This document shows, in pieces, positions 14,350-31,603 of a stretch of 64,000 nt of DNA (position 1 is the first letter of the stretch; each line of letters begins with the position of its first letter). Below the pieces are notes generated by a model. The model had not been told where the DNA came from. It was given only the letters and a program-made list of their open reading frames with translations, and made no database searches. The position numbers and the translations under genes were made by a program. Source of the DNA: Escherichia coli (GTDB lineage: Bacteria > Pseudomonadota > Gammaproteobacteria > Enterobacterales > Enterobacteriaceae); NCBI RefSeq assembly GCF_030013595.1, contig NZ_CP122768.1; one strand, written 5' to 3'.

Positions 14350-14425
<76 letters not shown>

Positions 14426-14479
14426 GTTTAAAAGGCATCGGCGTCAAGCGGATGTCTGGCTGAAAGGCCTGAAGAATTT

Positions 14480-14553
14480 GGCGCGTTAACAAAGCGGTTA
14501 TGTAGCGGATTGCAAATCCGTCTAGTCCGGTTCGACTCCGGAACGCGCCTCCA
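14480..14553 (+). tRNA. cysT: tRNA-Cys (GCA)
   Basis: GGCGCGTTAACAAAGCGGTTATGTAGCGGATTGCAAATCCGTCTAGTCCGGTTCGACTCCGGAACGCGCCTCCA read directly. Confidence 0.92.
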
Positions 14554-14565
14554 CTTTCTTCCCGA

Positions 14566-14652
14566 GCCCGGATGGTGGAATCGGTAGACACAAGGGATTT
14601 AAAATCCCTCGGCGTTCGCGCTGTGCGGGTTCAAGTCCCGCTCCGGGTACCA
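14566..14652 (+). tRNA. leuZ: tRNA-Leu (TAA), long-variable-arm type; 3' part lies inside prophage attL
   Basis: GCCCGGATGGTGGAATCGGTAGACACAAGGGATTTAAAATCCC...GGTTCAAGTCCCGCTCCGGGTACCA read directly. Confidence 0.92.
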
Positions 14653-14782: not shown

Positions 14783-15826
14783 TCATTTTCTCTGGCCACC
14801 AACTACGGGCACTACTTTAACTTTTCGGTCATATGCTGCTGTCTGTCGTGGGTTCTTATGCCCGGAAATTGCTTGCTTCTCTTCCAGGCTGCCTTCCAGA
14901 TCAGAGATACCTTTTGCTTTCAGATCATGAAATGTGAAGTCTATTTGCAGATGAGGATATTTTTCCTGTGCTGCCGCTTTGACATCACGCCAACGAGAGT
15001 TAAAACCATCACGGGTGTACTTGCCTCCGGTAGTTTGATGAATCACAAACAGGCTACTGATTCCCGGTTTTAATGGCAGAGAACGAGCCAGAGCTATCGC
15101 TTTCTGCAGACGAGGCGACCAGGCTTTGATTTGCTTAACGCCGGTTTTTCCCTGACGAATGTAGATCCCGGAATCGAACAGCTGGTCTTTCTGTAATGAA
15201 AGTACATCACTCTGTCTGGCCACACATAAGTAGGCAATCTCCATTGCCACGCGAACAACATCAGGAGACACTTCATAAACGGCCTGATATTCTTCATCCG
15301 TAATATAACGTTCGCGTGCTGTCTCTTTAAACTGCTTAACTCCCTGACAAGGATTCCTCTGGACATAACCTCGTTCATAACCCCAACGGAATACCCTGGA
15401 CATAAAGCTTTTTTCCCTATTTGCCTGAGTTCGGCTTGATAAACCGCGTTGATCCATATAGCGCCGAATATGTTCAGGTTTGATTTTATCCGGGTCGATC
15501 TTCCCGAAGACAGGCAGAACTTTTCCGGAATATTTTGTGTAGTCTTTCCTGGTTTCGACTGCCAAATCCATAAAATCAGGGGAGGTCATGAATTGTTCCG
15601 CGAGCGCCTGAAAAGTATTTCTTTCTTTTTCGTCACCGACCGCTTTTTCATATGCCAGCCATACGGCTGATCGTGGCGCATCCAATGCGCACAGGCGTAT
15701 CGCTTTGTTATCTTTATTCCTGAATTCGTAGGCCGCTTTGCCCTGGTAAACACGAGGCGGCATCCAGTTATCTGCTGGGTTCTTTCTCTTTCCGGCCATT
15801 AAATATTGCTCCAAAATCAGGTTCAT
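14783..15826 (-). CDS. int: Prophage tyrosine integrase
   Basis: 347-aa ORF next to attL/tRNA, opposite orientation; C-terminal region (...HDLKAKGISDLEG...SGHKNPRQTAAYDRK) resembles tyrosine-recombinase catalytic region. Confidence 0.85.
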   Translation of the reverse strand: MNLILEQYLMAGKRKNPADNWMPPRVYQGKAAYEFRNKDNKAIRLCALDAPRSAVWLAYEKAVGDEKERNTFQALAEQFMTSPDFMDLAVETRKDYTKYSGKVLPVFGKIDPDKIKPEHIRRYMDQRGLSSRTQANREKSFMSRVFRWGYERGYVQRNPCQGVKQFKETARERYITDEEYQAVYEVSPDVVRVAMEIAYLCVARQSDVLSLQKDQLFDSGIYIRQGKTGVKQIKAWSPRLQKAIALARSLPLKPGISSLFVIHQTTGGKYTRDGFNSRWRDVKAAAQEKYPHLQIDFTFHDLKAKGISDLEGSLEEKQAISGHKNPRQTAAYDRKVKVVPVVGGQRK

Positions 15827-16031
15827 CTTCTTTTCGCGTCGTCACCTCCTGTAAATTGCGAAATTTTATTGGGTTCAAGAAATGGCCCCAGGTTGTTTTT
15901 GGGTGCCCGTCAGCCCTTTCCATGAAGAAAATTCCAGCCCGGCGAAGAGCCTCACATTGCTTTGATTTAAGTGGGCTTCCCGTCAGCTCGACCATTTCTT
16001 CTCTGGTGATTATGTCGTGATCGCTTTTCAT
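15768..16031 (-). CDS. Putative excisionase / small DNA-binding protein
   Basis: 87-aa ORF immediately upstream of int and overlapping its start, as for lambdoid xis; no diagnostic motif. Confidence 0.35.
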   Translation of the reverse strand: MKSDHDIITREEMVELTGSPLKSKQCEALRRAGIFFMERADGHPKTTWGHFLNPIKFRNLQEVTTRKEDEPDFGAIFNGRKEKEPSR

Positions 16032-16240
16032 GGTCTTTCCTCATTATGTAGCTTATTGCGTCATCTGCCTTCTGGCAGGCACGGGCAATATCAGACTCGG
16101 TCAAAGTCTGTTTCCTGACGCTGGCCGACAGTCGGCCAATTTTGATATCAAATGCGGAGAGCAGAGTTGCTCCCGGTTGCCATCGCAGCATTGTGATCCT
16201 CCGGTTACTGGTGAAACGCAATGCTAGCGATGGTGAGTTT

Positions 16241-16423
16241 TTATTTCTGATTAGGCGTAATCAGTTCTGGTGGGGGGAATGCCGATTTCTCCCGCGTGAC
16301 CTTAATGTTTTCTGGCAGGTGTAGCCCAAGTTCGCAGCGACTCCGTGCTTCAATAATGCCATTGGTACCATCGGCAAGTACCAGGTGAACCGCGTCACCA
16401 CGCTTTAATGTGAGTTTAAGCAT
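16241..16423 (-). CDS. Small early protein with CsrA-like sequence pattern
   Basis: 60 aa MLKLTLKRGDAV...GLHLPENIKVTREK; gapless alignment to CsrA (MLILTRRVGETL...GVNAPKEVSVHREE) conserves M1 L2 L4 T5 G9 G33 P37 V42 R44 E45. Confidence 0.3.
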   Translation of the reverse strand: MLKLTLKRGDAVHLVLADGTNGIIEARSRCELGLHLPENIKVTREKSAFPPPELITPNQK

Positions 16424-16992
16424 TAGCGTACCCTCAGCGAACGTTCGCCGCGTTCCAGATGTGCGCCTGGTACCGGGTTTAATAACTCGGCTGGTGGTGT
16501 TTCTCCACGCGCCAGTATTTCGGCGGCAACCGCCTCCGCAGATTCAATCACTTCTTTAATGGCTCGCTTGTTTGGTGTAATAACCGTTTCTACATCAACA
16601 AGTGACACGCCTTCATACTCATCCGGGATCTTATCTTTGCTATCGATAATTACCCGGATAGCCCCCTGTGCATCAGTAAATGTGTTTTTTGCGGTTTTTA
16701 GTTTATCCAGGCCAGCAGCTTGCAGGCAGGCGAGCATATGCTTCCGAATTGCTTTTTCCTTGCCTTCAAAGGACGTCTTACGGGTAGCCAGGCGAGACAT
16801 TTCTTCAGCGCAGGTACTGGCATTGCCCTGTAAATTACGGCAGATGACCATCATGGCGTCCAGTTTGTCTCCCAGTTCTCCTTCCATACCTTCAAGCGTG
16901 TCGGCGATCATCTCTGGCGTCAGTTCGTCGGAGGTTTCTAACAGGTCAATCAGACTGGCATATTCTTTTGCAATAGCGATAGCAGTGCTCAT
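16423..16992 (-). CDS. Phage recombination-module protein (Gp157-like, tentative)
   Basis: 189-aa acidic ORF directly downstream of the annealing-protein gene; family from memory. Confidence 0.4.
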   Translation of the reverse strand: MSTAIAIAKEYASLIDLLETSDELTPEMIADTLEGMEGELGDKLDAMMVICRNLQGNASTCAEEMSRLATRKTSFEGKEKAIRKHMLACLQAAGLDKLKTAKNTFTDAQGAIRVIIDSKDKIPDEYEGVSLVDVETVITPNKRAIKEVIESAEAVAAEILARGETPPAELLNPVPGAHLERGERSLRVR

Positions 16993-19214
16993 GCTGTTTG
17001 CTCCTGTGCTGCGGTGAGGGCGGTGAGGCGTTCGGTTTTGATTTCATTCAAACGGCGCAGGCGCGAACCAAGATAAGTTGAATACTCCTTATCACCTTTG
17101 GATTCTGCGGCCTTGCGGTGAACTTCTACTTCCCGCGCAATAAGGCCATAGACTTTATTAACTTCATTGGGGGTTACGGCTGCAGCCAGTGTTTTGGCAA
17201 CACCTGAGAGTCGTTCATCCAGTTCTTCACGCAGTCGGGTAGCATCCTCTGCTTTCTCGCTTGCCTTCTTAATACTGTATTCTGTATTCAGCTCGGCGGT
17301 GTAGGCACTATCGTTATGCATATCCATATAAACATCTGCCGCAAATCCCAGATGAGATAGTGCTTTGACGGTGGCATCAGTAAGAGACTTTTTGGAGGCC
17401 TCTTTTTCCATTACCAGTGCCCCTTTGTTATTTTTTGATATGTAATCCGTGTGGCCATATGACGGAATAAATCCTTTCACTCCGTTCCAGATGTACCAGA
17501 GATCTATCCGGATGGTGTGTACTGACAGGCAGAACAGGGAACCGTCAGCATCCCTGACAGGTTTTTGTCCAATAATTTTCCCTGTCTGATCCTGTATAGG
17601 TTCAAGTAATGGCACACCGCGATCCACTCGCTCCTCCTTGATTTCAACTCCCCAACCAATGCCTTCCATTCCCAGCACTTCAGTCGCACGCATCAAAATA
17701 TATTGTGCGCGTATGGAGTGCAGTCCTGCACCGTAATCATTATGTGTGACATACGCAGGATCGGTCCGCTGAACGCGATTCCAGATAGCCAAATTTGCTT
17801 TGCTCTGGTCATCATTCATTGCTGACAGATAATGCTCCATGCGAATTGATGCAGTTTTTTCCTCGGCATGGGGCGGCTCAACCAGCGCGTCAACGTTCTG
17901 CACCAGGTCTTTTACCTGCTCGCTAAGTTTTTCTTGTGGAGGAGTCTCTTCTGCCGGGGTAATAGCTGCAGGTTCCCTCTGTGATACGGCGTTATTTTCA
18001 GGTACGTCATACACATGGCGAGGCGTGACAAACTGCTCACGCAACTGCTGCAAACTACGTTCTCCAGCATTTGCTGCTTCGCTTTTTTCGCCCTGATTTG
18101 AGGGTGTTTCTGACATCATTCCATCAATTGAGAATCGCCCGCCGCCGTGGTTGGTGACTTTTACATCATCCTTTGGTGCTGTTTCCTTTGGCTTCTCTTC
18201 AACAGCATTTGCATCACGCTGCCCGTTAGCTTGCAGCCAGTTGTCGATGTGACTGCGCAGGGATTGCGGGAAGTGGTACGTGTCTTTTGCGGGGGCGCTC
18301 TGAATAACACCGAATACTGATGCGCGGTCATAGGCAAGGATCTGATCCGTTGTGCGCAAGGCCATTGACCAGCGTTTAAAATCCTCCCGATCCTGGCTGA
18401 TTATTTCGTCTGCCGCTTTCAGGACGCTGGGGGTGATTTTTTCCGGGCCAACGGGTAACAGGGCGCAGGCAATTTCACGATCCAGTGTGGCGTGAGTCTG
18501 TTGGTAAGGACGTGCGGATGCTGTTTCTGGTTTTACCTCCGGCAGCATTTCATCGCGTTTACCGGGATTCTCTACCCATTTTTTTATAAATTTGGAGATA
18601 GTCCAACTGGTCGGGTTTTGTTCCTGGGTATCGCAACTTGCCAAAATTGCATGTACCAGATTATTCAATCCAGCAATATGCATGTACTCGATGGGCTTAC
18701 ACGCCACCATGGCATCAAGAACGATGCGGTTAAACGCGTCAACCTCATCCTCACTGTCAGTATCACTGTTGTCGAGCATCTCCAGGTATTCACGCGTCTG
18801 CGCAAGCAATTCACTGTCGACTTCGTTGGCGTCGTGGCTGAACAGCAGGACGGCGGCGAAGCGTTCACGAGCCGGCAGTTTCATCAGGTCGTTAACCTGT
18901 GCGATATCTGCTGAACCGCTATCTGAATCAGCGGGGGTGTTAACTACCCATTTTTCGCCATCAAAACTGTGTTCTGTGGCAAACGTCTCATCAAACTCAC
19001 CGACGCCAGGGCGCGGTTGGCCCGGGGCATCTTCCCAGATTTTAGGTTTGAAATAGTTGTCGCCGTGGTCAGGGTAGGCTTCCCACAATTTGCCGATGAT
19101 GATGTTCTCGGCAACTTTTTTGTTAGGGGCGTCGATGGCGATGGCCAGCGCCGGGATCGCGCCGTTTTTGAGCGCGCCTTTTTTCGCTTCTAACAAGCCG
19201 TTAAAGATGGTCAT
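16989..19214 (-). CDS. Large early protein with C-terminal Erf/Rad52-type single-strand annealing domain (tentative)
   Basis: 741-aa ORF, RBS GAGGAAAGACCA before ATG; C-terminal ...KEASKKSLTDATVKALSHLGFAADVY resembles the Erf signature; N-terminal ~450 aa acidic, unrecognised. Confidence 0.5.
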   Translation of the reverse strand: MTIFNGLLEAKKGALKNGAIPALAIAIDAPNKKVAENIIIGKLWEAYPDHGDNYFKPKIWEDAPGQPRPGVGEFDETFATEHSFDGEKWVVNTPADSDSGSADIAQVNDLMKLPARERFAAVLLFSHDANEVDSELLAQTREYLEMLDNSDTDSEDEVDAFNRIVLDAMVACKPIEYMHIAGLNNLVHAILASCDTQEQNPTSWTISKFIKKWVENPGKRDEMLPEVKPETASARPYQQTHATLDREIACALLPVGPEKITPSVLKAADEIISQDREDFKRWSMALRTTDQILAYDRASVFGVIQSAPAKDTYHFPQSLRSHIDNWLQANGQRDANAVEEKPKETAPKDDVKVTNHGGGRFSIDGMMSETPSNQGEKSEAANAGERSLQQLREQFVTPRHVYDVPENNAVSQREPAAITPAEETPPQEKLSEQVKDLVQNVDALVEPPHAEEKTASIRMEHYLSAMNDDQSKANLAIWNRVQRTDPAYVTHNDYGAGLHSIRAQYILMRATEVLGMEGIGWGVEIKEERVDRGVPLLEPIQDQTGKIIGQKPVRDADGSLFCLSVHTIRIDLWYIWNGVKGFIPSYGHTDYISKNNKGALVMEKEASKKSLTDATVKALSHLGFAADVYMDMHNDSAYTAELNTEYSIKKASEKAEDATRLREELDERLSGVAKTLAAAVTPNEVNKVYGLIAREVEVHRKAAESKGDKEYSTYLGSRLRRLNEIKTERLTALTAAQEQTA

Positions 19215-19244
19215 TGGTCTTTCCTCATTACAGGTCAGTGGTCT

Positions 19245-19565
19245 TTAGTAGGGGATTTCATCAGTATCTGGCGTGTATTCGATGCAAAGTAACTGCTGGA
19301 TTTTGTCATCGATAGCAGCAATACGCTGTTGGGCGTCGGCGACTGTTTTCTGTTTTTGCTCATACAGCTGCTCGACCTGCAAACCGATGATGTCGATTGG
19401 CTGGGGCTGGTTGACGGTAATTTCAATTTCGCGGCTTTCCAGAAGGATGTACCTGTCTGGAAAATTTTTTGACATATCAACAGTCGCAACAAGCAGCTTT
19501 TCGTGGCTGAAAGTTGAAGTTGCATAATTAATAAAGAGTGTTACTGGGATGGTGCGCGCTTCCAT
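19245..19565 (-). CDS. Hypothetical early-left operon protein
   Basis: 106-aa ORF with AAGGAG RBS; first gene after the ORF-poor leader. Confidence 0.45.
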   Translation of the reverse strand: MEARTIPVTLFINYATSTFSHEKLLVATVDMSKNFPDRYILLESREIEITVNQPQPIDIIGLQVEQLYEQKQKTVADAQQRIAAIDDKIQQLLCIEYTPDTDEIPY

Positions 19566-20416
19566 AGCGACTCCTTGGTGATGTATACTCGGGACCGATC
19601 AGCGAATATTGATCAGCTTCCATAGCGTCAGTGTCGTTGGTCTTTCCTCATCACAAGTTTGGTCACTTGTGATAAATCCGAATGGTTTGGTCGCCGTTCG
19701 GGGTAACTGGCCCGCCTTGTGCGGGTCTTTTGCTATCTAAAGGGTGCCGGTTACGTTTCCGGCGTCGTTATGTTTCCATCACGACCGTACGGGGCTGGTC
19801 TTTCCTGTTTTGAGCTGGTCAGGCTCATGGTCAACGCTGGTCAGGCGTGGTACTTCCTCCGGTCTTTCCCTGGTGTCACGCTGCGGGTTTGGCCTCTCCT
19901 GTTGGGGACTCAGGCACAGCGATAAAACCTGGCTGTGTGAAAAAATGGCCCATCGTGCGGACTGGGCAAAGGCTAAACACAGCAAATTGATGATGGGCGC
20001 CCGGAATCGAACCGGGTAACGGGCAGGGAGTTCCCGTTAAACACCTGTTCACCACAACCGGGAGCGCACTCCGCCATTTCAAAATTTAACGACAAAGCTC
20101 AAAGTTGAGTCGATGAAGTGCGCTCTCGTGTTGTAGCCAGGACTCTTCCCTGGTGGTCACACCGTATCGCCTTGATGGTGAATCAATCGCTCATACCTGG
20201 CTGTGGCTTGCACATTCCGGCTAGCTGCTATGGAGACAACGCGTTAAGGCTCCGCTTCCATCCAGACCGCTTCGACACATGTGCCATATGCCGGCGAAGT
20301 CTTTCCCTCTGTCATCGTGTTGGCGCCGACGCGCAAAATTTGATGCCGTCTTTCCGGCTGTCAGAACGTGTTTCTGAACAACTGCCGCTGGGTAAGCGTT
20401 GTTGATGAAAGTGACT

Positions 20417-20436
20417 TTACAATTTGTATTTGTAAT
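20417..20436. promoter_or_regulatory. Putative left operator (OL-like) palindrome
   Basis: ttacaatttgtatttgtaat with TTACAA / TTGTAA half-sites, same half-site as at 21010..21048 on the other side of the repressor gene. Confidence 0.4.
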
Positions 20437-20561
20437 GGTCAACGTATTTTTAAAAAATAATTTGTAGTTAGGGGCAAAAAAATATTCACTGTGTAAAGGT
20501 GTTTTTGTGTTAGGGGGAAAGTTGCATGCCAGCAGCGGCTGGCCTGGAAATTTGAACTGAA

Positions 20562-20975
20562 CTATTTTGTCTGGTTTTTGGCTTCAAGTAGTTCTTTTAG
20601 CAGTAGATCGAAGTGCTCTCTTTTTTCTTTTAGCTCATTGATTAATTTATTTTTTTCGCTCTCAGGCAGTCCTCTGAATAGTTGCAGTAGAGCCTGTTCT
20701 TGCGGGGTTAGTTCTTGATTGTAATTACCCGGGTGTAGCGTGGATTCATCCAAATATTCACCTTCATTCATGAAGAAAAAATGAACAGGGTATCCGGTCA
20801 CTTTTGCTAGCTTGTCTAATTTATCTTTTCTTGGAGTTACCCCATTACACCATGCCTGAACTGATTGAGCCGTAACCCCAATATGGCGAGCTAACTCAGA
20901 TTGAGACCAGCCTAAGTCTTTTAGAATCCGTTGTAGTCGGCTAGCAAAAGCCATGTTTTTCGTTTTTGTGTTCAT
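20562..20975 (-). CDS. Prophage repressor (CI/RacR-like, XRE-family HTH)
   Basis: HTH LGWSQSELARHIGVTAQSVQAWCNG; divergent from cro-like gene; exact start uncertain (track ORF extends to 20990 with TTG). Confidence 0.6.
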   Translation of the reverse strand: MNTKTKNMAFASRLQRILKDLGWSQSELARHIGVTAQSVQAWCNGVTPRKDKLDKLAKVTGYPVHFFFMNEGEYLDESTLHPGNYNQELTPQEQALLQLFRGLPESEKNKLINELKEKREHFDLLLKELLEAKNQTK

Positions 20976-21009
20976 ACCGTAAGGATACAAGGTTTAATTG
21001 TAGGGAGCA

Positions 21010-21048
21010 TTGCAAATATAATTTGTAATTACAGTTATGATTTGTAAT
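21010..21048. promoter_or_regulatory. Putative right operator region (OR-like) between repressor and cro-like gene
   Basis: ttgcaaatataatttgtaa palindrome plus a second atttgtaat half-site. Confidence 0.45.
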
Positions 21049-21073
21049 GATGGCGCGGACACAAGGAGTCCAT

Positions 21074-21304
21074 ATGGATAAACAACTGCAAGACAAAATT
21101 CTTTCCGTAATGAGTCAATCCGAGTTAGGGCGGCGATTAGGGAAAAAACCACAAACGGTAAGCCTCTGGTTCAAAGGAAGGGTTCCCGGTGAAGAGGTTT
21201 TGCGCACATCTGAAGCTCTTGAATGGCGCGTGACCCCCCATGATCTTAGACCGGATCTTTACCCAAACCCAGATGACAGCTTGCCTAAAACGAAAGCAGC
21301 TTAA
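21074..21304 (+). CDS. Cro/YdaS-like HTH regulator
   Basis: AAGGAG RBS before MDKQLQDKIL...; HTH SQSELGRRLGKKPQTVSLWFKG; divergent from repressor. Confidence 0.55.
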   Translation: MDKQLQDKILSVMSQSELGRRLGKKPQTVSLWFKGRVPGEEVLRTSEALEWRVTPHDLRPDLYPNPDDSLPKTKAA

Positions 21305-21362
21305 CTGTTGGTGAGCCCCAAATCTGATTAAGCGTAATCAATTTTTAGCGACAGGAGACGCT

Positions 21363-21839
21363 ATGGAAAACCAAGAGGAATTACAAAAAGAGATTTTGAC
21401 CTGGGCGGCAAGGGCAGGGCAGGAACTCGTCACGATTGAAATCTGCCGGGCCTGGTTCAGTCAGGGACGCAATGATGAGTTGAGACTACATGAATTTGAG
21501 GACGCGGACGGCAATGTGGACTGGAGAGCCATCAACAACAATCGGCAGAAAATCTTTCGCTGGTTACGTGGCGAGACAACGGCGGCGCGCCGAAAAACTC
21601 AGGTGCTGGCCAGTGTGATGAAAGCCGTGCTACCCGCAGAACGGCGGGCGCGTCTGGAGTCGCCGGGCGATCCCGTTTTGCTGGCAACGCTGGCGGCAAA
21701 AGAAGGGGTGGAAGCGATTAACGCTGTACATCTCCACTTCGCGCCAGAGATAACTATTCAGGAAATTGACGAAGCAATAGCGGCGCTGGTAGCGACGCGA
21801 GGGGCAGTGATAAGCACTGCGCAAGGCCATCATGCATGA
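21363..21839 (+). CDS. YdaT-like / CII-like early regulator
   Basis: 158 aa; ...NRQKIFRWLRGET... resembles Rac YdaT as I recall; position after cro. Confidence 0.45.
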   Translation: MENQEELQKEILTWAARAGQELVTIEICRAWFSQGRNDELRLHEFEDADGNVDWRAINNNRQKIFRWLRGETTAARRKTQVLASVMKAVLPAERRARLESPGDPVLLATLAAKEGVEAINAVHLHFAPEITIQEIDEAIAALVATRGAVISTAQGHHA

Positions 21840-21878
21840 GCGCCTGACCAGCGTTTAACTTATACCGAGGAAAGACCG

Positions 21879-22103
21879 ATGTTAAGACATATTGACCGCA
21901 TTACCTGGCGTAACGGCTGGCACCTGAATGGACGCCCGGCACATGTTGCAGAGATCCAACCTATTTTTGATGGGCGTATGGCTGCCGCGCTTTCGGTGTG
22001 GGAGCAGTATGAATCCAGGAAGGTCGAGTTGCGCGACAAAGGGCTGAGCAATGCGGACTATGAAGCCGGTTGTCGTCAGATAGCCGAAGCTCTGGAGATC
22101 TGA
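21879..22103 (+). CDS. Hypothetical early protein
   Basis: 74-aa ORF preceded by the recurring ACCGAGGAAAGACC leader motif. Confidence 0.4.
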   Translation: MLRHIDRITWRNGWHLNGRPAHVAEIQPIFDGRMAAALSVWEQYESRKVELRDKGLSNADYEAGCRQIAEALEI

Positions 22104-22105
22104 GT

Positions 22106-23182
22106 ATGAGTCGTTTGCTGATTAACGAAAACCCCCTTCAGGTCCTGCCCACGTTGGCATGCACTATAGGGTTGAATGAAGCCATCGTTCTACAGCAAAT
22201 CCACTACTGGCTGAATTCATCTCAAAATTTCTTCGAAAATCGCCACTGGGTGTACAACAGTGTGACCGATTGGCAAGAACAATTCCCGTTCTGGAGCGAG
22301 TCGACAATAAAACGCGTGCTGGCCAATCTGGAAAAATTGAATGTGGTATTTACTGGGAACTTTAACAGTGATGCCTGGGATAAAACCAAGTGGTATTCAA
22401 TCAATTATGCCCAGTTATGTAAGATTGAAGAGACAACATTCCCTGTGGCCAATCGATTAGGTCAAGTTGACCCAATCGAAGAGGTCAATGTGACCCAAGC
22501 ATCAGGTCAAGTTGACCCATGCGCTAAGGTCAAAATGACCCAATCTCTTACAGAGAATACAACAGAGAGTACTACAGAGAGTACTACAGAGATAAAAGAT
22601 CCCCCTTACCCCCAAAAGGGGGAGGGCGAGGAAATCATTCTCGCTGACGCTCAAAAAGCTCTGAACTACTACAACGAGAAAGTCGGTACACGCTGCCGCG
22701 ACGTTAAACCGTTTGTCATGCTGCTGACTGCCACCACCACCCGCGCTGGTTACAGCGTGGCTGAGATTCAGTTAGTAATTCGTTGGGTTATTGCGACATG
22801 GCGCCGTCGTAGCGGAAGCGTGCCGAAACCTGCGAACATTTGCCGCGTAAACCGGTTTGACGGATATCTGGCTGACGCTGAGGCGTGGGCCACTGCTGAG
22901 GCTGCCGTTGACCCTGCTGAAGTTGTGAAGGGCTACAACGAGATTCTGGGCGACCTGCTACCTATAGCTGAAATTGATACTGACCGCCGTCGGGCAATCC
23001 TGCGCCTGCTGGCACATATGCGCACGCAAACTCTTGGCGCATTTATCGGCTACTTCGAAAAATTCCGCGATAACGCCCCAGACTTCTATTTCGGCGGCGA
23101 ATATCGCACCGGCTGGCGGGCAGGGTTTGATTACCTGATGAAGCCAGAAACACTGCGTAAAACCAGGGAAGGGGCATTATGA
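22106..23182 (+). CDS. Replication initiator (lambda O-like, ori iterons inside the gene)
   Basis: GGAG RBS before MSRLLINENPL...; four GGTCAA-NN-TGACCCA iterons and a TESTTESTTE-encoding repeat in mid-gene; followed by helicase. Confidence 0.6.
   Translation: MSRLLINENPLQVLPTLACTIGLNEAIVLQQIHYWLNSSQNFFENRHWVYNSVTDWQEQFPFWSESTIKRVLANLEKLNVVFTGNFNSDAWDKTKWYSINYAQLCKIEETTFPVANRLGQVDPIEEVNVTQASGQVDPCAKVKMTQSLTENTTESTTESTTEIKDPPYPQKGEGEEIILADAQKALNYYNEKVGTRCRDVKPFVMLLTATTTRAGYSVAEIQLVIRWVIATWRRRSGSVPKPANICRVNRFDGYLADAEAWATAEAAVDPAEVVKGYNEILGDLLPIAEIDTDRRRAILRLLAHMRTQTLGAFIGYFEKFRDNAPDFYFGGEYRTGWRAGFDYLMKPETLRKTREGAL
22460..22543. repeat. Origin iterons: 4 copies of GGTCAA(NN)TGACCCA at ~23-bp spacing
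   Basis: ggtcaagttgaccca / ggtcaatgtgaccca / ggtcaagttgaccca / ggtcaaaatgaccca, followed by (actacagagagt)n. Confidence 0.6.
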
Positions 23183-24570
23183 ATCCAGAAGAACTGGAAG
23201 CGATCGTTCTCGCTGGTCTGATTAACGGTGGCGCGACGCCTGACGCGTTTGATGTGATTGCCACTACTCCGGAGGAAGCCTTCAGCATCGTGTTTCACCG
23301 TCGCGCTTTCAGCGAAATCAAAAAGCAGGCACTGGCGAACGGCATGATCGACATGTTGTTTATCAGCGAAGCGCTGGGCGGTTCCAGCCTTGCGGATCTG
23401 TCTCAAATATCCCGGATCCCGGCAACGGTACCGAATCTGAAAGGCTATGCCGGGAAAATGGTGCGGGCATGGCGGAGCCGCAAAATGGCGGCATTGTTGC
23501 AATCTGGCGCGGATGGTATCCGTAACGCTGTAAACCAGAGTCAGCGTGATGAGGTTATTGAATCTCATGTTGCTCAGGTGCTGGATATGAGCGCCGCTAC
23601 CGGCACAGTCCAGCCGGTACACATCAAAGAGCTGTTACCGCTCTACATTGACACCGTTGATAAACGGATGTCTGGCGACGCGCAGGAAATGATGCTGAAA
23701 ACCGGAGTCGAGGATCTGGATGTCGCCCTGGGCGGTATCAACATGACCGACCTTGTTGTGGTTGCCGGTCGTCCAGGCATGGGGAAAACGGAATTTACCC
23801 TGAAGATTATCGATGGCGTTACCGCAGATGGCGGCGGCGCACTGTTTTTCAGCATGGAAATGGGCGCTCAGCAGATTGTTGAACGTACCGTTGCCGGGGC
23901 TGGGAATATGTCCACGTCGCGTCTGCGTAATCCAAAAGAAATGGACGATGAGGATTTGACCAGATTAACCGCCGCGCTTGCAATCATGCAGGATCGCGAT
24001 ATCTGGATTGTTGATGCCACTGATTTGACGATTGAGCAGATCCGCGCCATTGCAGAGACTCATAAACGCCGTTATCCGCACCTGAAGTTGATTGGTGTTG
24101 ATTACATGGGCCTGATCAAAAAACCGAAGGCCGAGCGCCACGATCTCGCTGTCGGGCATATCTCCCGCAACATGAAGACTATGGCCATGCGTCTGCATAC
24201 CCCTGTTTTTGCTCTTAGCCAGCTTTCCCGCCAGGTGGATTCTCGACCTGCTGGCCAGCGTCGCCCGGTGATGTCGGACCTGCGCGATTCCGGCAGTGTT
24301 GAGCAGGACGCTGACAGCATTTTGTTTTTGTACCGCGATGAAGTTTACACACCTGATTCACCTGCAAAGGGTATCGCCGAGGTGATTATCGGTAAAAACC
24401 GTTCTGGCGGGGCAGGTGAAATTATTTATCAGGAATTCCGGAATGGGCATTTCCTGCCAATTGATCAACACGTAGCACGCGAAAAATTACGCATCCAGAA
24501 GGAGGCAGAGCAACCGAGAAAACGTGAAAAACGGTATTCAAACAAAAACTTTAATACGGACCCATTTTAA
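23179..24570 (+). CDS. Replicative DNA helicase (DnaB family)
   Basis: 463 aa; Walker A GRPGMGKTEF, DnaB-like C-terminal motifs (SQLSRQVDSR, DLRDSGSVEQDADSILFLYRDEVY). Confidence 0.8.
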   Translation: MNPEELEAIVLAGLINGGATPDAFDVIATTPEEAFSIVFHRRAFSEIKKQALANGMIDMLFISEALGGSSLADLSQISRIPATVPNLKGYAGKMVRAWRSRKMAALLQSGADGIRNAVNQSQRDEVIESHVAQVLDMSAATGTVQPVHIKELLPLYIDTVDKRMSGDAQEMMLKTGVEDLDVALGGINMTDLVVVAGRPGMGKTEFTLKIIDGVTADGGGALFFSMEMGAQQIVERTVAGAGNMSTSRLRNPKEMDDEDLTRLTAALAIMQDRDIWIVDATDLTIEQIRAIAETHKRRYPHLKLIGVDYMGLIKKPKAERHDLAVGHISRNMKTMAMRLHTPVFALSQLSRQVDSRPAGQRRPVMSDLRDSGSVEQDADSILFLYRDEVYTPDSPAKGIAEVIIGKNRSGGAGEIIYQEFRNGHFLPIDQHVAREKLRIQKEAEQPRKREKRYSNKNFNTDPF

Positions 24571-24608
24571 CCACGCATGACCAGCGTGAAATAACCGAGG
24601 AAAGACCA

Positions 24609-25019
24609 ATGACCACCATTTCAGGCAAATTAGAGTACCCGTCGGACAAAGGACACATAGACGACGGTAAAAACTATCTCGACGTCATTTTGTGGAATAT
24701 GAACGCCGGGCCACGTGCGCGCACTCGTGCGGTTTTTGTACCAAGACCCAAAGCAGGCAATTTTTCAACACCAGCTCAGCCTGCCCGTCAGGCATCCGTA
24801 GCCGCAGCGCCAGCAGTGAAATGTAAGGGTAAAACGCACATCGGGATCGCGATTCGCAGAAATGGTGAGCGGCAAGTGAAACTCCACGAAACAGCGACAA
24901 CCTGGTGTGCTTCACCGCATGAAACTTACGACAAGATAACCGGGCAGCGCATTGGTGCGCCTGGTCGCTGTCGCCTGCTGTTGAGCTCCATCACTCCGAT
25001 AGAAAAGAAAGGGGCGTGA
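24609..25019 (+). CDS. Hypothetical nin-region protein
   Basis: 136-aa ORF preceded by ACCGAGGAAAGACCA leader motif. Confidence 0.4.
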   Translation: MTTISGKLEYPSDKGHIDDGKNYLDVILWNMNAGPRARTRAVFVPRPKAGNFSTPAQPARQASVAAAPAVKCKGKTHIGIAIRRNGERQVKLHETATTWCASPHETYDKITGQRIGAPGRCRLLLSSITPIEKKGA

Positions 25020-25020
25020 T

Positions 25021-25257
25021 ATGACCGGGCAATCAGATTACCTGCCGCCCGGCTTACCACACAACCGCGCCAAATGGCCCCAGGAATACCAGCTTAAAGA
25101 GCACTACGACATGCGAGCGGCGGCGCTGATCCGCCAACTCTTTGAGAAACGTATTCCGAGGGGAAGCGTGATTGAGCAAATCGGAATGACGCCGGATACA
25201 TACCGGGAATTTTTCAGAGAGCGTCTGAACTACTGGAGAGGGGTGATGGAACAATGA
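25021..25257 (+). CDS. Hypothetical nin-region protein
   Basis: 78-aa ORF, tightly packed with neighbours. Confidence 0.35.
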   Translation: MTGQSDYLPPGLPHNRAKWPQEYQLKEHYDMRAAALIRQLFEKRIPRGSVIEQIGMTPDTYREFFRERLNYWRGVMEQ

Positions 25258-25565
25258 AATACAAACGGTGGGTGCGTGCGGAAGTCGTAATCATCAAACA
25301 ATGTGCAGGCAGCATGACAGTTGAACGTATAGGGCAGCTTATTGGCAGAACCGGTGCAGCGGTACGCACAAAAGCGCGCGAGCTGAAAATCTGTATGTAT
25401 CTGCGGGGTAATTATCATCAGTCAGCGAAATACTGCCAGGAGGATATCGAGCTGGCAAGGGAATTACATCAGTCGGGTATTAATCGCCAGGATATCGCGG
25501 AAAAACTCGAAATGCCGATCGGAGCGGTGAATCAGTTTGTTTATTTTGAGCGGAGGATTTCATGA
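25254..25565 (+). CDS. Putative HTH DNA-binding protein
   Basis: 103 aa with two HTH-like segments (MTVERIGQLIGRTGAAVRTKAREL; INRQDIAEKLEMPIGAVNQF). Confidence 0.35.
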   Translation: MKYKRWVRAEVVIIKQCAGSMTVERIGQLIGRTGAAVRTKARELKICMYLRGNYHQSAKYCQEDIELARELHQSGINRQDIAEKLEMPIGAVNQFVYFERRIS

Positions 25566-25786
25566 AAGAACTTTTTCTGGCATTTGTGCCCCGGTTTATT
25601 AATGACCAGATCGCACTGACTAATAATGGTGAACAATATGAAATTGCCTGCAGCATGGTGGATGTGAATCCTGGCGAACGGTATGACGCGATGTGTGACC
25701 TGAAAATATTTACCTGGCTGGGTTGGGCTATTCCGTGTGGAGAACCAACCAATATTCGCCCATTTGAGAGCAGGGAGGCTGTATGA
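25562..25786 (+). CDS. Hypothetical protein
   Basis: 74-aa ORF overlapping neighbours by 4 nt. Confidence 0.3.
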   Translation: MKELFLAFVPRFINDQIALTNNGEQYEIACSMVDVNPGERYDAMCDLKIFTWLGWAIPCGEPTNIRPFESREAV

Positions 25787-25949
25787 GTGAATTGAAAATA
25801 CGAATGAACCCAAGTCGCAAGGCGATCAAATTTGCGCAGTGTGTCTTGCAGATGGCTGAAGGTGAATGTTATATAAAAGAGTGTCATGGATAACAAGGCA
25901 CTCACTATCAATGATTATCTGTTAAAAAAGCAATCGACAAGGAGTTGAA

Positions 25950-26207
25950 ATGCAGACTCAATTAAAGGTTAAAGGCGGTTATAGTCATTTTTTCTTCGCC
26001 AATATTGAAGTCTCACAAAGAGAGTCAAATGGCGGTTTGGTTGTCGTTAGGGATGTTAATATACCTATTACAACAACAACTCTCTCTCTGTTAGAGAATT
26101 ACGCTGTAGGGCAGGTGTTGACGTTAGAACAAAAGAATGGCGATTTTTTTGATGTGTATTACGTTGGAACTGATGGGAATAACTTTCAGTTTTCAACGCA
26201 CTGCTAA
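25950..26207 (+). CDS. Hypothetical AT-rich small protein (3' end lies in repeat copy A)
   Basis: 85-aa ORF with AAGGAG RBS; its last ~90 nt reappear degenerate at 31186.. Confidence 0.4.
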   Translation: MQTQLKVKGGYSHFFFANIEVSQRESNGGLVVVRDVNIPITTTTLSLLENYAVGQVLTLEQKNGDFFDVYYVGTDGNNFQFSTHC

Positions 26208-26350
26208 TTTATCAAGGCCCTGTGAGCAGGGCCTTCGAAAGCCTACTAAAGTCTGTTTCATAGAGAGAGTTATTTGCGATTAAAAAGGTATTTGGTCACG
26301 ACCAGCACGATAGAGAATACATCTTTCAAAGTACCGCCCATATAAAACAG
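26118..26350. repeat. Imperfect direct repeat, copy A (~230 bp)
   Basis: Roughly 80-85% identical by eye to 31186..31413 (ttgacgttagaacaaaa ... aaaaggtatttggtcacgacca). Confidence 0.7.
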
Positions 26351-26649
26351 TTACATATGCACTTGATGACTAAGCTGGCACCAGGTTAACACCATGCGCC
26401 AGCTTGAAGGAGACTTCAGTTATTGGTTTCTGAGGAAAGCGATTCTTGAAAGGGTCATTTGCGTCTGGCAGTCGACCATTTTCTTGACTTCAGCATCTGT
26501 TCCTTTCTTGACTTCAGCATCTGTTCCCTGCATTGAAACTTTACCGCACATAGCATCCTTAGTTTTGATCCACTGGCGCTGAGAAGGCAGCAACTTGAAC
26601 CGCCCCGGAAATCCTGGAGACTAAACTCCCTGAGAAAGAGGTAAACAGG

Positions 26650-26976
26650 ATGACTAAAAATACTCGTTTTTCCCCCGAAGTCCGTCAGCGGGCGATTCGT
26701 ATGGTTCTGGAAAGTCAGGATGAATATGACTCACAGTGGGCGGCAATTTGTTCCATTGCCCCAAAGATTGGCTGTACGCCGGAGACTCTGCGTGTCTGGG
26801 TTCGCCAGCATGAGCGGGATACCGGGGGCGGTGATGGTGGGCTCACCAGCGCTGAACGTCAGCGTCTGAAAGAGCTGGAACGTGAAAATCGTGAACTGCG
26901 CCGCAGTAACGATATCCTTCGCCAGGCTTCCGCTTATTTTGCGAAGGCGGAGTTCGACCGCCTCTGGAAAAAATGA
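26650..26976 (+). CDS. IS3-family transposase OrfA (HTH)
   Basis: [41 protein letters not shown]...; ends in AAAAAATGA frameshift window (A-run 26968-26973). Confidence 0.85.
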
Positions 26977-27863
26977 TGCCACTGCTGGATAAGCTGCGTG
27001 AGCAGTACGGGGTCGGACCGGTATGTAGCGAACTGCATATTGCCCCGTCAACGTATTACCATTGTCAGCAACAGCGACATCATCCGGATAAACGCAGTGC
27101 CCGTGCGCAGCACGATGACTGGCTGAAGAAAGAGATACAGCGCGTATACGATGAAAATCACCAGGTATACGGTGTGCGTAAAGTCTGGCGTCAGTTGTTA
27201 CGGGAAGGTATCAGAGTGGCCAGATGCACTGTGGCACGTCTCATGGCAGTTATGGGACTTGCCGGTGTTCTCCGGGGTAAAAAGGTCCGCACTACCGTCA
27301 GCCGGAAAGCCGTTGCCGCAGGCGACCGCGTAAACCGTCAGTTCGTGGCAGAACGACCTGACCAGCTGTGGGTGGCTGATTTTACTTACGTCAGCACATG
27401 GCAGGGCTTCGTCTATGTGGCGTTTATCATTGATGTGTTTGCCGGATACATCGTGGGGTGGCGGGTCTCATCGTCTATGGAAACGACATTCGTGCTGGAT
27501 GCGCTGGAGCAGGCGTTGTGGGCCCGTCGTCCGTCTGGCACCATCCATCACAGCGATAAAGGCTCTCAGTATGTGTCACTGGCCTATACGGAGCGACTAA
27601 AAGAAGCCGGATTACTGGCATCAACAGGGAGTACAGGCGACTCGTATGACAACGCGATGGCTGAGAGCATCAATGGTCTTTACAAAGCGGAGGTAATACA
27701 CCGTAAGAGCTGGAAAAAACGTGCAGAAGTGGAACTGGCCACACTAACGTGGGTGGACTGGTATAACAATCGACGATTGCTGGGAAGGCTGGGCCATACT
27801 CCTCCGGCAGAAGCAGAAAAAGCTTATTATGCTTCCATCGGAAACGATGATCTGGCAGCCTGA
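26973..27863 (+). CDS. IS3-family transposase OrfB (DDE catalytic domain), -1 frame relative to OrfA
   Basis: 296 aa with DDE integrase-core-like region (...[31 protein letters not shown]...[10 protein letters not shown]...[15 protein letters not shown]). Confidence 0.85.
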
Positions 27864-29436
27864 GTTCACAGATAAAACACTCTCCAGGAAACCCGGGGCG
27901 GTTCAACTCTTTTTTCTTCGCCGGGGTTAACTTGCTCCAGACGGTATTCAAATCAGAGTCAGCATTTGCAAATGCCATTCGGGACTGATCAAGGCTTTCA
28001 GATTTTTGCGGCTGAAGTTGTGCCTGCCTCTCTTTTTGCTTCTCCGCCTCATACCTGGCCTGTTCCTGTGCCCTGAGTTGCACCTGTTGTTCCGCTTCAA
28101 TTTGACTCTGTTGGGCATCCTTAGCCTGCTGGATTTTCTGCTGCTCAACGATCGGGTTGATAATGGAAAGCGATGTCAGTAAAGCGGCGCCCACTGATAT
28201 CGGATTATCAGAAGAGGTTTTTACAAAAACGTTTTTCTGATCGTCGGTCGCCTGCACGGTGTAGGTGATACGCCTTGAAAAGGCGTTTGCGTTGTTCTCC
28301 AAAAACAGATTTTCCATTTGCTTATCGAGATTACGATTAAAATTCTTTCTGTAAGCATCTGAAAGCTGGACGTACTCGTTCGCAGGTAGAGTCATCGTCA
28401 CGGTCCCTTCACAAGTTTTCATTGTGCTGCCCGTGTCACTTGATGTTGTGGAGATTTCAGAGACGGCTAGTTTGATCTTGTCCAGTGTGCTTCGTTTGGT
28501 CTGATTAGTGACATCAGGGTATTTATCGACCTGTTCAGAGAGTCCTTCATAAGCAGATTTTTTTAATAAATCCATGAGAGCTGATTGGGTCATTTCCGAA
28601 GAACAACCGATCTCATCTTTTTTGTTATCACAGCCTGTAAGGGCAATGGCGAGTAAGAGTACTGAGTATTTTAATCTCATGAATTCCCTTTAGAGTAAGG
28701 ATTGGTTTTTAAGACGCGGTCTGTAATCAGTTCCGAGAGCTACAGTAAACAACGCTGAGCACTGAACGCATCACAGGCAAGGTAAAAGGTGATATCGGCA
28801 AAGGCTGTGAAACCTTTAATTCAACAGATGGGAACGGTATGCACAGGATCCTGTAACGACGCTCCCAAAACTGGAAACCTGTAAGGCATGTTTTCGCTGC
28901 TGAACTTAATATACGAACCTGCACTATCATGAACATATTTTATATCGTTATACCCCGAGTGATTGTGCCCGGCAATGGATAGTGTCCTGGAGGAATTATT
29001 TCTAATGTAAAAGGAAGATATTTAATTTCGATGTGGGATTATTACCTGTCTATAAGAACAATGACTTTATCTGGCAGTAAGCAGACATCTATTAGCTTAC
29101 TGAAGGGGGGCTGTGATTTGACCATTAACGGCATGAGATATATTGTCTATTGGTGATTGTTCTGAGGCCGATATCACGTTAACGACCAAGTAAAATAACA
29201 TGAAAAATTATTTATTAATGATTGCCAGCATTAAATGTAGTGATACCTCATTAGCAGGGTGCTCCGCAATGACTGCGATGAACTAAAAAATCAGTCATAA
29301 CCATGAAAAAAACAAGTGTATCAGCGAAATTAAATCTGGTGAAAGCATTTAATTACTTGTTAATGACGCAATAAAAACATACTATGGAAATGTAACAGCT
29401 AATCTACAGTTCTTGTCAATAGGGGCGCACAAGAAA

Positions 29437-30027
29437 ATGTTAAATGAATTTAAGGAAAAGCTACTATCCGACGATATCCGCGATGTCTACCAACGATACC
29501 TTTTAGGACATGACATCTGGTATTTTCGGGAACAAAAAAAATCAATAACCTTTGCTAAAGATTATGATGAGTTTAAGCTATATATGTCTAAGAAGCTTGA
29601 AATTCATGTAAATAATATTGCAATTGTTGGAAGTGCTAAGATGGGATTCAGCTTGAGCCCTGATAAAAATTATCGAACATTTAACGATGAGTCAGATATA
29701 GACTTGGTTTTAGTATCCGACAGAATTTATAAATCTTCCTGGATGGCATTTATTGAATTACAATCAAAGAATTATTTGCCTGTATATGCTCCTGTAGCTA
29801 AAAATATTTTCAAAGGATTCGTGTCATTGAAGGAGTTAGATATTAGAGTCGATTTTTTTAATAAATGGTCCCGTAACGTTGAACCATTAAAAAAAGACAT
29901 TCAAACTATTTTTGGAATACCTAACGACATCAACTACAGAATTTATGACTCTTGGGAGTCCGTTGAACGCTATCACATAGCTGGGTTGAATAGTCTAAAA
30001 GATAAGTTACAAGGACAATTGATATGA
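29437..30027 (+). CDS. Nucleotidyltransferase-fold protein (Pol-beta superfamily signature), function unknown
   Basis: IAIVGSAKMGFSLSPDKNYRTFNDESDIDLVLVSD = hG[GS]...[DE]hDh motif; AT-rich; stop overlaps next start (ATGA); track ORF begins at TTG 29413. Confidence 0.5.
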   Translation: MLNEFKEKLLSDDIRDVYQRYLLGHDIWYFREQKKSITFAKDYDEFKLYMSKKLEIHVNNIAIVGSAKMGFSLSPDKNYRTFNDESDIDLVLVSDRIYKSSWMAFIELQSKNYLPVYAPVAKNIFKGFVSLKELDIRVDFFNKWSRNVEPLKKDIQTIFGIPNDINYRIYDSWESVERYHIAGLNSLKDKLQGQLI

Positions 30028-31082
30028 GAGCTATTGATCTAATTAAAGTTGAATCGAAAGACATTAAATGGTTGACGGATAATTTGAAATCAGGTGTTAT
30101 TACAGTTGATAATTCATATCAGAGAAAATATATCTGGCAGCAAAAAGACCAAGTGGCCTTAATTGAGACAATATTAATTGGCTACCCAATCCCTGAGATT
30201 TACCTTTGGGCAAATAATACTGATCCTGACACTGGAGATACTAAATATTCAATTGTAGATGGACAGCAAAGGCTAACCACAATCCAGCGATATTTAAATG
30301 ATGAGTTTAAGTTAAGCAAAGCAGCTATAGATGATAAAGAAGCCGACTATAGTGGGAAAATTTTTTCAGAATTGTCGGCAGATAACAAACGTGATTTTTG
30401 GCGATACCAATTCTCATCCAGATTTATTAATGAATCATTGAGATATGATGAGATTGCAAAGTTATTTTTACGTCTAAATAGAACAAATACTACGTTAAAT
30501 CCTCAAGAACTTCGTAATGCTGAATTTAATGGCGAGTTTTTAAGATTAGCCGAAGAAATTGCACAAAATGAATTTTGGGATAATTATAAGATATTTACTC
30601 AGTCAGATATCCGTCGGATGCAAGACATTCAATTCATCAGCACATTATTGATTTTCTTACGAATGGGTATTGAGCAGGATAATACACAAAAATCAATTAA
30701 TCGAGTGTATGATCAATACAATGAGAATTACCCTGAGGCGACTGAGGACAGAATTATCTTTAACGAAGTGTTAAGGATCATATCTCAAATTATCAACAAT
30801 AAACAAGTATTAGAATCAGTTGTAAAGAAAAAAGGCCATTTGTATTTTATATTTGTGCTGGCATACTATTATTTACAGCTTAGTAAATCTAAGCTTGTTG
30901 ATATGAATGTTATTAGTTCAAAGCTCGAGGATTTTTTTAATATTTATGAGTTAAATGAACAAGATAACCCCCATCCACTGGTTGAGGAATATAGATTCCT
31001 CAGCCAAGAGGGTTCAAAGAAGAGTCATAACAGACAGCGTAGATTTGATATTTTGAAAGAATTTTGCTCTTTACATGATTAA
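30024..31082 (+). CDS. DUF262 / ParB-like protein (GmrS-type N-domain only, no DUF1524/HNH half)
   Basis: YQRKYIW...IVDGQQRLTTI and ...LNRTNTTLNPQELRNAEF motifs typical of DUF262; 352 aa; AT-rich. Confidence 0.6.
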   Translation: MRAIDLIKVESKDIKWLTDNLKSGVITVDNSYQRKYIWQQKDQVALIETILIGYPIPEIYLWANNTDPDTGDTKYSIVDGQQRLTTIQRYLNDEFKLSKAAIDDKEADYSGKIFSELSADNKRDFWRYQFSSRFINESLRYDEIAKLFLRLNRTNTTLNPQELRNAEFNGEFLRLAEEIAQNEFWDNYKIFTQSDIRRMQDIQFISTLLIFLRMGIEQDNTQKSINRVYDQYNENYPEATEDRIIFNEVLRIISQIINNKQVLESVVKKKGHLYFIFVLAYYYLQLSKSKLVDMNVISSKLEDFFNIYELNEQDNPHPLVEEYRFLSQEGSKKSHNRQRRFDILKEFCSLHD

Positions 31083-31185
31083 ATGACGAAAGTGGGTTGT
31101 TTATAAGAATTGAATAAACAACCCATCATTTTAATGTACTCTGAATCCTCTCATTCTTAGTGAAATATTGTTTTTAGAACACGTA

Positions 31186-31413
31186 TTGACGTTAGAACAA
31201 AAAATAGATTTTTTTGTGATGTATTACGTTGGAGTTGATGGGATAATTATATGTTTTCAATACATTGTTAATTTATCAAGACCCTGCGACTAAGGTGTTC
31301 GAAAATCGACTAAAGTCTGTTTCATAGAGAGAGTTACTTGCGTTTAAAAAGGTATTTGGTCACGACCAACACGAGGCCGAATACCTCAGTTTAAGTACCG
31401 CTCATGTACAACA
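31186..31413. repeat. Imperfect direct repeat, copy B (~230 bp)
   Basis: Degenerate duplicate of 26118..26350, including a decayed copy of the 3' end of the 25950..26207 gene. Confidence 0.7.
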
Positions 31414-31603
31414 GTAACGTTTGCTGATAGTGTCGCATTATCTTGCAGAGGACGCAGGTTAAATAGAACAAGCATATGTACCTGGTTTTTGTAATATTGG
31501 GTATAACATATGCTTTATAGGAGCGCGCTCAATGACCAACCGAGAAAGAATCTCCTGACAGATACAGTTATTTTCACCCTCTCCATAACATAAGGGAGTT
31601 TTT

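Follow-up and report, generated by a model that had tools for sequence, protein, structure and literature searches.

The window, a stretch of 64,000 nucleotides from Escherichia coli, carries on its minus strand a lipoprotein gene of the LprI/DUF1311 family that is split into two parts by IS629. The 24-bp tandem repeat analyzed here lies in the C-terminal part. The gene belongs to a prophage-like region, where it lies downstream of a DnaB-type helicase gene. A tRNA Gly-Cys-Leu cluster and an integrase gene are located next to the region. This organization suggests that the prophage-like region is integrated beside tRNA-Leu. The features of the interrupted gene are listed in Table 1.

Table 1. 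Positions in the window of the repeat, the two parts of the lipoprotein gene and the insertion element.
Feature	Position	Strand	Evidence
C-terminal fragment of the LprI/DUF1311 lipoprotein gene (58 codons and stop)	26420..26595	-	ORF list, reconstruction, PF07007, annotation of relatives
3'-proximal copy of the duplication, encoding the second GTDAEVKK	26480..26503	-	TRF, sequence; single identical unit and identical flanks in E24377A
5'-proximal copy of the duplication, encoding the first GTDAEVKK (reconstructed protein, residues 281-288)	26504..26527	-	TRF, sequence
Left target-site duplication ACT, 3 bp	26593..26595		sequence; reconstruction
IS629 (IS3 family), 1310 bp, with orfA 26650-26976 and orfB 26973-27863	26596..27905	+	inverted repeats, ORFs, identity
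Right target-site duplication ACT, 3 bp	27906..27908		sequence; reconstruction
N-terminal 257 codons of the lipoprotein gene (signal peptide/lipobox, alpha/beta domain, long Q/E-rich helix, start of LprI)	27909..28680	-	ORF, reconstruction, AlphaFold
ORF of 336 aa: N-terminal part of the lipoprotein reading on into the IS to 27670	27670..28680	-	

Over its full length, the 1310-bp element shares 98.9% identity with elements that Stx-phage records annotate as IS629. It possesses terminal inverted repeats of approximately 25 nt and overlapping orfA and orfB, and it is bordered by a 3-bp target duplication. Its assignment to IS629 is based on the near-identity and on these structural features. 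Insertional inactivation by IS629 is common in E. coli O157 and in Stx prophages. The insertion in the window agrees with those cases in the length and identity of the element, the inverted repeats and the target duplication, and nothing notable differs. On the plus strand, IS629 is located 65 bp beyond the repeat, which is approximately 22 codons upstream of the repeat in the gene.

When the element and one ACT were removed, so that 28680-27909 was joined to 26595-26420 on the minus strand, an uninterrupted ORF of 948 nt (315 codons) was obtained. The 315-aa product of this ORF matches the public protein P0114 exactly. It possesses a signal peptide and the lipobox LTGC (MRLKYSVLLLAIALTG-C17), which were read directly from the sequence, and C17 is invariant in the family alignment, as expected for a lipoprotein. 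A match to Pfam PF07007 (LprI, formerly DUF1311) was detected at residues 230-312 with 34.9 bits (E = 2.1e-08), where the gathering cut-off is 22 bits. The relatives are named 'lysozyme inhibitor LprI family protein' in the RefSeq annotation. No MliC domain was detected in the reconstructed protein by the domain search. The original prediction had placed the repeat in a C-terminal fragment of a lipoprotein gene, and this was right, since removal of the IS restores the 315-aa ORF with its signal peptide and lipobox. The lipoprotein gene in the window is an IS-disrupted pseudogene. Because IS629 splits the gene, the repeat has no effect on a full-length product in the window.

The 24-bp tandem repeat

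Tandem Repeats Finder (TRF) detected a single array at 26480-26527 with a period of 24, 2.0 copies and 100% matches. The unit is TTTCTTGACTTCAGCATCTGTTCC, and inspection of the sequence showed that both 24-mers are identical. The repeat cannot be extended at its ends (26479 is T and 26503 is C; 26528 is C and 26504 is T), and it is flanked by GGCAGTCGACCAT...CTGCATTGAAAC. The minus-strand ORF 26420-26593 contains GTDAEVKK twice (...QGTDAEVKKGTDAEVKKMVDC... / ...MQGTDAEVKKGTDAEVKKMVDCQ...). A perfect 24-bp tandem duplication encoding two in-frame copies of these eight codons on the minus strand had been proposed beforehand. TRF and direct reading bore out the duplication, and the ORF bore out the two peptide copies. 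The position given for it, 26481-26528, was one base too far to the right, although the 22-mer quoted with it does occur twice.

The chance of a perfect 24-base tandem match is approximately 4^-24 per position, and simple arithmetic gives approximately 2e-10 over the 64-kb window. Thus, the 24-bp repeat is not a product of chance. Only three other small tandem arrays are present in the whole window. The repeat is a simple tandem duplication: it has two exact head-to-tail copies here, where the closest relatives have a single unit between identical flanks.

Misassembly can produce short tandem duplications. For the possibility that the repeat is a sequencing or assembly artefact, nothing was found beyond this general consideration. 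Besides the window, two complete chromosomes and three more assemblies fetched from different projects contain the identical duplication. Its presence in independent assemblies rules out an assembly artefact, and the probability that we assign to this explanation is negligible.

Copy number in E. coli genomes and in the two-copy lineage

The native two-copy segment (196 nt) matched 441 of 5,426 complete E. coli genomes. For 438 of the 441, the 'identity' was 80-90%, and in the listed records the aligned part of the query exceeded the match by exactly 24 nt. With a one-copy query, from which one unit had been removed, 417 genomes matched at 99% or more, 22 at 95-99% and only 2 at 80-90%, which is the band expected for a 24-nt gap. 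The genomes with the segment therefore carry one copy in 439 cases and two copies in 2 cases. No three-copy allele was found among the 5,426 complete genomes: the one-copy query gave nothing under 80%, where such an allele would fall. The two-copy genomes are those of HCP5S3_I2 and LCP30S3_I5, a pair of near-identical pig isolates in which the 948-nt gene is intact and encodes WP_112024906.1.

In E24377A, the 24-mer is present once and the flanks are identical. After removal of one copy, the window gene shares 99.7% identity with the alleles of E24377A, SE11 and C41, which are the closest one-copy alleles. This match shows that the duplication is exact and recent, and that its backbone is approximately three substitutions away from known one-copy alleles.

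The exact two-copy protein of 315 aa is already public as P0114 (WP_112024906.1, several NCBI accessions, and UniRef A0A2S8JPL6), and it is listed in 44 collection blocks with at least 24 contigs. In all 24 contigs that were read, the neighbouring genes are the same, and the gene always lies in one prophage. Exactly two perfect copies are present in 5 of 5 loci (L001, L003-L005 and the window), whose flanks are 99.7-100% identical to the window over approximately 6 kb on each side. The locus L005 carries the two-copy allele without the IS, and its flanks are 100% identical to the window.

Draft genomes were covered by exact-protein look-ups, and the DNA scan covered complete genomes. One-copy and three-copy versions of the exact 315-aa protein were absent from approximately 15 billion proteins by exact look-up, a search that is blind to reverted or expanded alleles with any other substitution. 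The IS-fused 336-aa ORF of the window has no entry in this collection either. An exact scan of metagenome contigs with the 25-nt copy-to-copy junction gave 0 matches, and the allele was seen in isolate genomes only. In a tblastn search of 50,697 phage records, the reconstructed protein had no match, and these records provided no phage homologue for comparison. In the family alignment, the GTDAEVKK site is single-copy in 30 of 30 homologues from at least eight genera. Within one near-clonal prophage lineage, the copy number is fixed at two; elsewhere, the site is single-copy. The 315-aa two-copy allele is an ordinary indel allele that is already catalogued.

The repeat had originally been regarded as a possible slipped-strand variable site, with comparison of copy number among homologues as the check. 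Copy number is not invariant (one in most homologues, two here), and in this respect the proposal stands. However, the difference amounts to one single step in one lineage. If the repeat were a slipped-strand contingency locus, the 24-bp unit would expand and contract often and would vary an exposed segment of the lipoprotein. Perfect tandem repeats slip more readily than unique sequence; the unit is in frame and both copies are perfect, alleles with 1 and 2 copies exist, and the E. coli allele P0002 carries another 8-codon duplication in its Q/E-rich helix. However, there are only two states, and they track the prophage lineage. The fetched two-copy carriers are near-identical in their flanks and all have exactly 2 copies. 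Neither the complete genomes nor the exact look-up yielded a three-copy allele, and no one-copy version of the exact protein was recovered. Furthermore, all other genera have one copy, and the ancestral site is without repeat structure. We therefore consider a contingency locus very improbable. The claim of a slipped-strand variable site is not supported: what is observed is a single step from one copy to two in one near-clonal prophage lineage, with one copy in the remaining genomes of the scan and three copies in none.

As in contingency loci and variable-number tandem repeats (VNTRs) of surface-protein genes, the unit is in frame and lies inside a gene for an exported lipoprotein. In contrast to them, the window repeat has two copies only, higher numbers were not seen, and homologues have no repeat at the site. 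It is not classed as a VNTR, as there is no polymorphism among close relatives and no range of copy numbers (states 1 and 2 only). A hypermutable or phase-variable tract is largely refuted by the fixed copy number within the lineage. The repeat reveals no new variable-surface system, and in this sense it matters little.

The prophage of L001 (NZ_CM149870.1) is essentially identical to window 15000-26595, but it is approximately 1.3 kb longer there. An 'IS3 family transposase' is annotated in the extra stretch, and a second IS is present near window 31184. The differing IS sites in L001 and the window indicate that the same prophage gained different IS insertions in different hosts.

The repeat site in the LprI family

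Homologues of the lipoprotein were found in 113 clusters, from Citrobacter, Enterobacter, Yersinia, Pantoea, Erwinia, Proteus, Morganella and other genera. Their lengths are 301-333 aa, and in the alignment all of the length variation lies within the Q/E-rich helix. P0002, an E. coli protein of 315 aa encoded by another allele of the gene, has a different exact 8-residue duplication (AEQQVQLR twice, residues 196-211) in this helix.

Outside the lipobox, the alignment shows four conserved cysteines, C26, C90, C274 and C300. Of these, C274 and C300 are present in every one of 31 aligned sequences, in agreement with the cysteine conservation described for the LprI family (PMC7933661). The spacing between the last two cysteines was counted in 127 proteins from the searches, which ranged from Escherichia to Proteus/Morganella at approximately 45% identity and of which 118 possess the motif. 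It is 18 residues in 117 of these 118 proteins and 26 residues in the window allele alone. The constant 18-residue spacing suggests that the Cys274-Cys300 loop is under tight structural constraint in a domain that is not otherwise characterised.

The AlphaFold model (mean pLDDT 83) consists of an N-terminal alpha/beta domain, a 60-residue helix and a helical LprI domain, with a loop at approximately 270-290 and a last helix at 291-313. Residues 281-288, the first repeat copy, are placed in a loop segment with pLDDT below 50 (residues 280-287), a low value that is partly owed to an alignment gap in the model input, and the second copy starts the last helix. From the model, the extra eight residues are probably accommodated as a longer Cys274-Cys300 loop and tolerated there. 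For the LprI domain, phmmer gave only chance-level sequence matches in the PDB (E of approximately 0.24). With the full AlphaFold model, Foldseek gave no PDB fold match at E of 0.001 or below; the best were weak NTF2-like matches to the N-terminal domain (E of approximately 0.12).

The protein shares a C-terminal PF07007 domain above the cut-off with LprI/DUF1311 proteins such as Mycobacterium tuberculosis LprI and Salmonella ScwA. Its C26, C90, C274 and C300 parallel C30, C100, C237 and C259 of ScwA, in which the four conserved cysteines form disulfide bridges required for stability (PMC7933661). ScwA has an LprI domain without MliC, and a lysozyme-inhibitor role was not found for it (PMC7933661). 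Unlike ScwA, which is a soluble periplasmic protein, the window protein is a predicted lipoprotein. It further differs from other LprI/DUF1311 proteins in that no MliC was detected, in its long Q/E-rich helix of variable length, and in the wider spacing of the last two cysteines (26 residues in the window allele, as against 18).

A rival explanation is that the duplication is adaptive. According to this explanation, the eight extra residues would alter the partner specificity or the stability of the lipoprotein, and the allele would have been selected and spread with the prophage. The insertion lies between family-invariant cysteines, whose ScwA counterparts need their disulfides for stability (PMC7933661), and the ORF of the two-copy allele has stayed intact in at least 24 assemblies and in 2 complete genomes. 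However, its carriers constitute one near-clonal prophage lineage, so that descent alone explains its persistence. Moreover, the gene is dispensable enough to have been knocked out by IS629 in the window, and no independent recurrence of the duplication was seen. Selection for the eight residues is thus unlikely. That the insertion is a functional, selected variant, acting for example on disulfide-dependent folding or on a binding partner, or else that the repeat is an incipient variable site, is very unlikely. As a natural insertion mutant, the 315-aa allele is a possible probe of the little-understood LprI/DUF1311 domain.

Origin of the duplication and other features of the region

It is highly likely that the repeat is one spontaneous duplication, stably inherited as a marker of a prophage lineage and older than the IS629 insertion. 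The exact in-frame 24-bp duplication would have arisen once, in the LprI/DUF1311 lipoprotein gene of an E. coli prophage adjacent to tRNA-Leu. It adds GTDAEVKK between the conserved C-terminal cysteines, at the junction of the loop and the last helix, and the two-copy allele would then have been passed on unchanged as a marker of its prophage lineage. In a later step, IS629 split the gene in the window genome and left the duplication in a pseudogene fragment.

The duplication preceded the IS629 insertion. This order is given by the IS-free two-copy alleles with 100% identical flanks (L005) and by the junction of IS629 with the lipoprotein gene, which was found in 0 of the 5,426 complete E. coli genomes and in no other genome. 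The duplication serves as a convenient lineage marker for one E. coli prophage, and together with IS629 it gives the order of two mutations.

Replication slippage or unequal sister-strand exchange is the usual explanation for spontaneous in-frame tandem duplications, and many short ones are bounded by a few shared bases. The duplication in the window has the same exact head-to-tail copy, a unit that is unique in the ancestral sequence, a length that is a multiple of three and stability within the clone. It differs from them in the absence of junction microhomology: inspection of the duplication boundaries found zero shared bases. At the ancestral single-copy site, no imperfect 24-nt periodicity was found by eye. 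With neither microhomology nor ancestral periodicity, there is no support for an origin by simple slippage between short direct repeats that were already present. We infer that the duplication arose by replication slippage, template switching or unequal sister-strand exchange and that it is near-neutral. The invariant 18-residue spacing argues for a constrained loop length, and judged from the alignment, the insertion might not be neutral.

Several other features were observed in the region. The tRNA Gly(GCC)-Cys(GCA)-Leu(TAA) cluster is located at 14350-14652 and is followed by a 347-aa minus-strand ORF at 14783-15826. In close relatives, a tyrosine recombinase/integrase is annotated somewhere within the match to window 15000-26595. 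The ORF 22070-23182, which immediately precedes the DnaB-type helicase gene 23179-24570, contains two adjacent tandem arrays, 22449-22545 (23 bp, 4.3 copies) and 22549-22592 (12 bp, 3.7 copies). These arrays resemble the iterons of a lambdoid replication origin within an O-like initiator gene.

A direct repeat of approximately 240 bp with 82% identity (26112-26351 and 31180-31415) brackets the LprI-DUF262 gene block. In L001, an IS3-family element is found at the edge of the second copy of this repeat (window approximately 31178-31184). Beside the lipoprotein gene, two overlapping genes are present at 29413-30027 and 30024-31082, the second of which encodes a DUF262/GmrSD_N-domain protein as prophage cargo. 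Proteins of the DUF262/GmrSD_N type are often tied to anti-phage defence.
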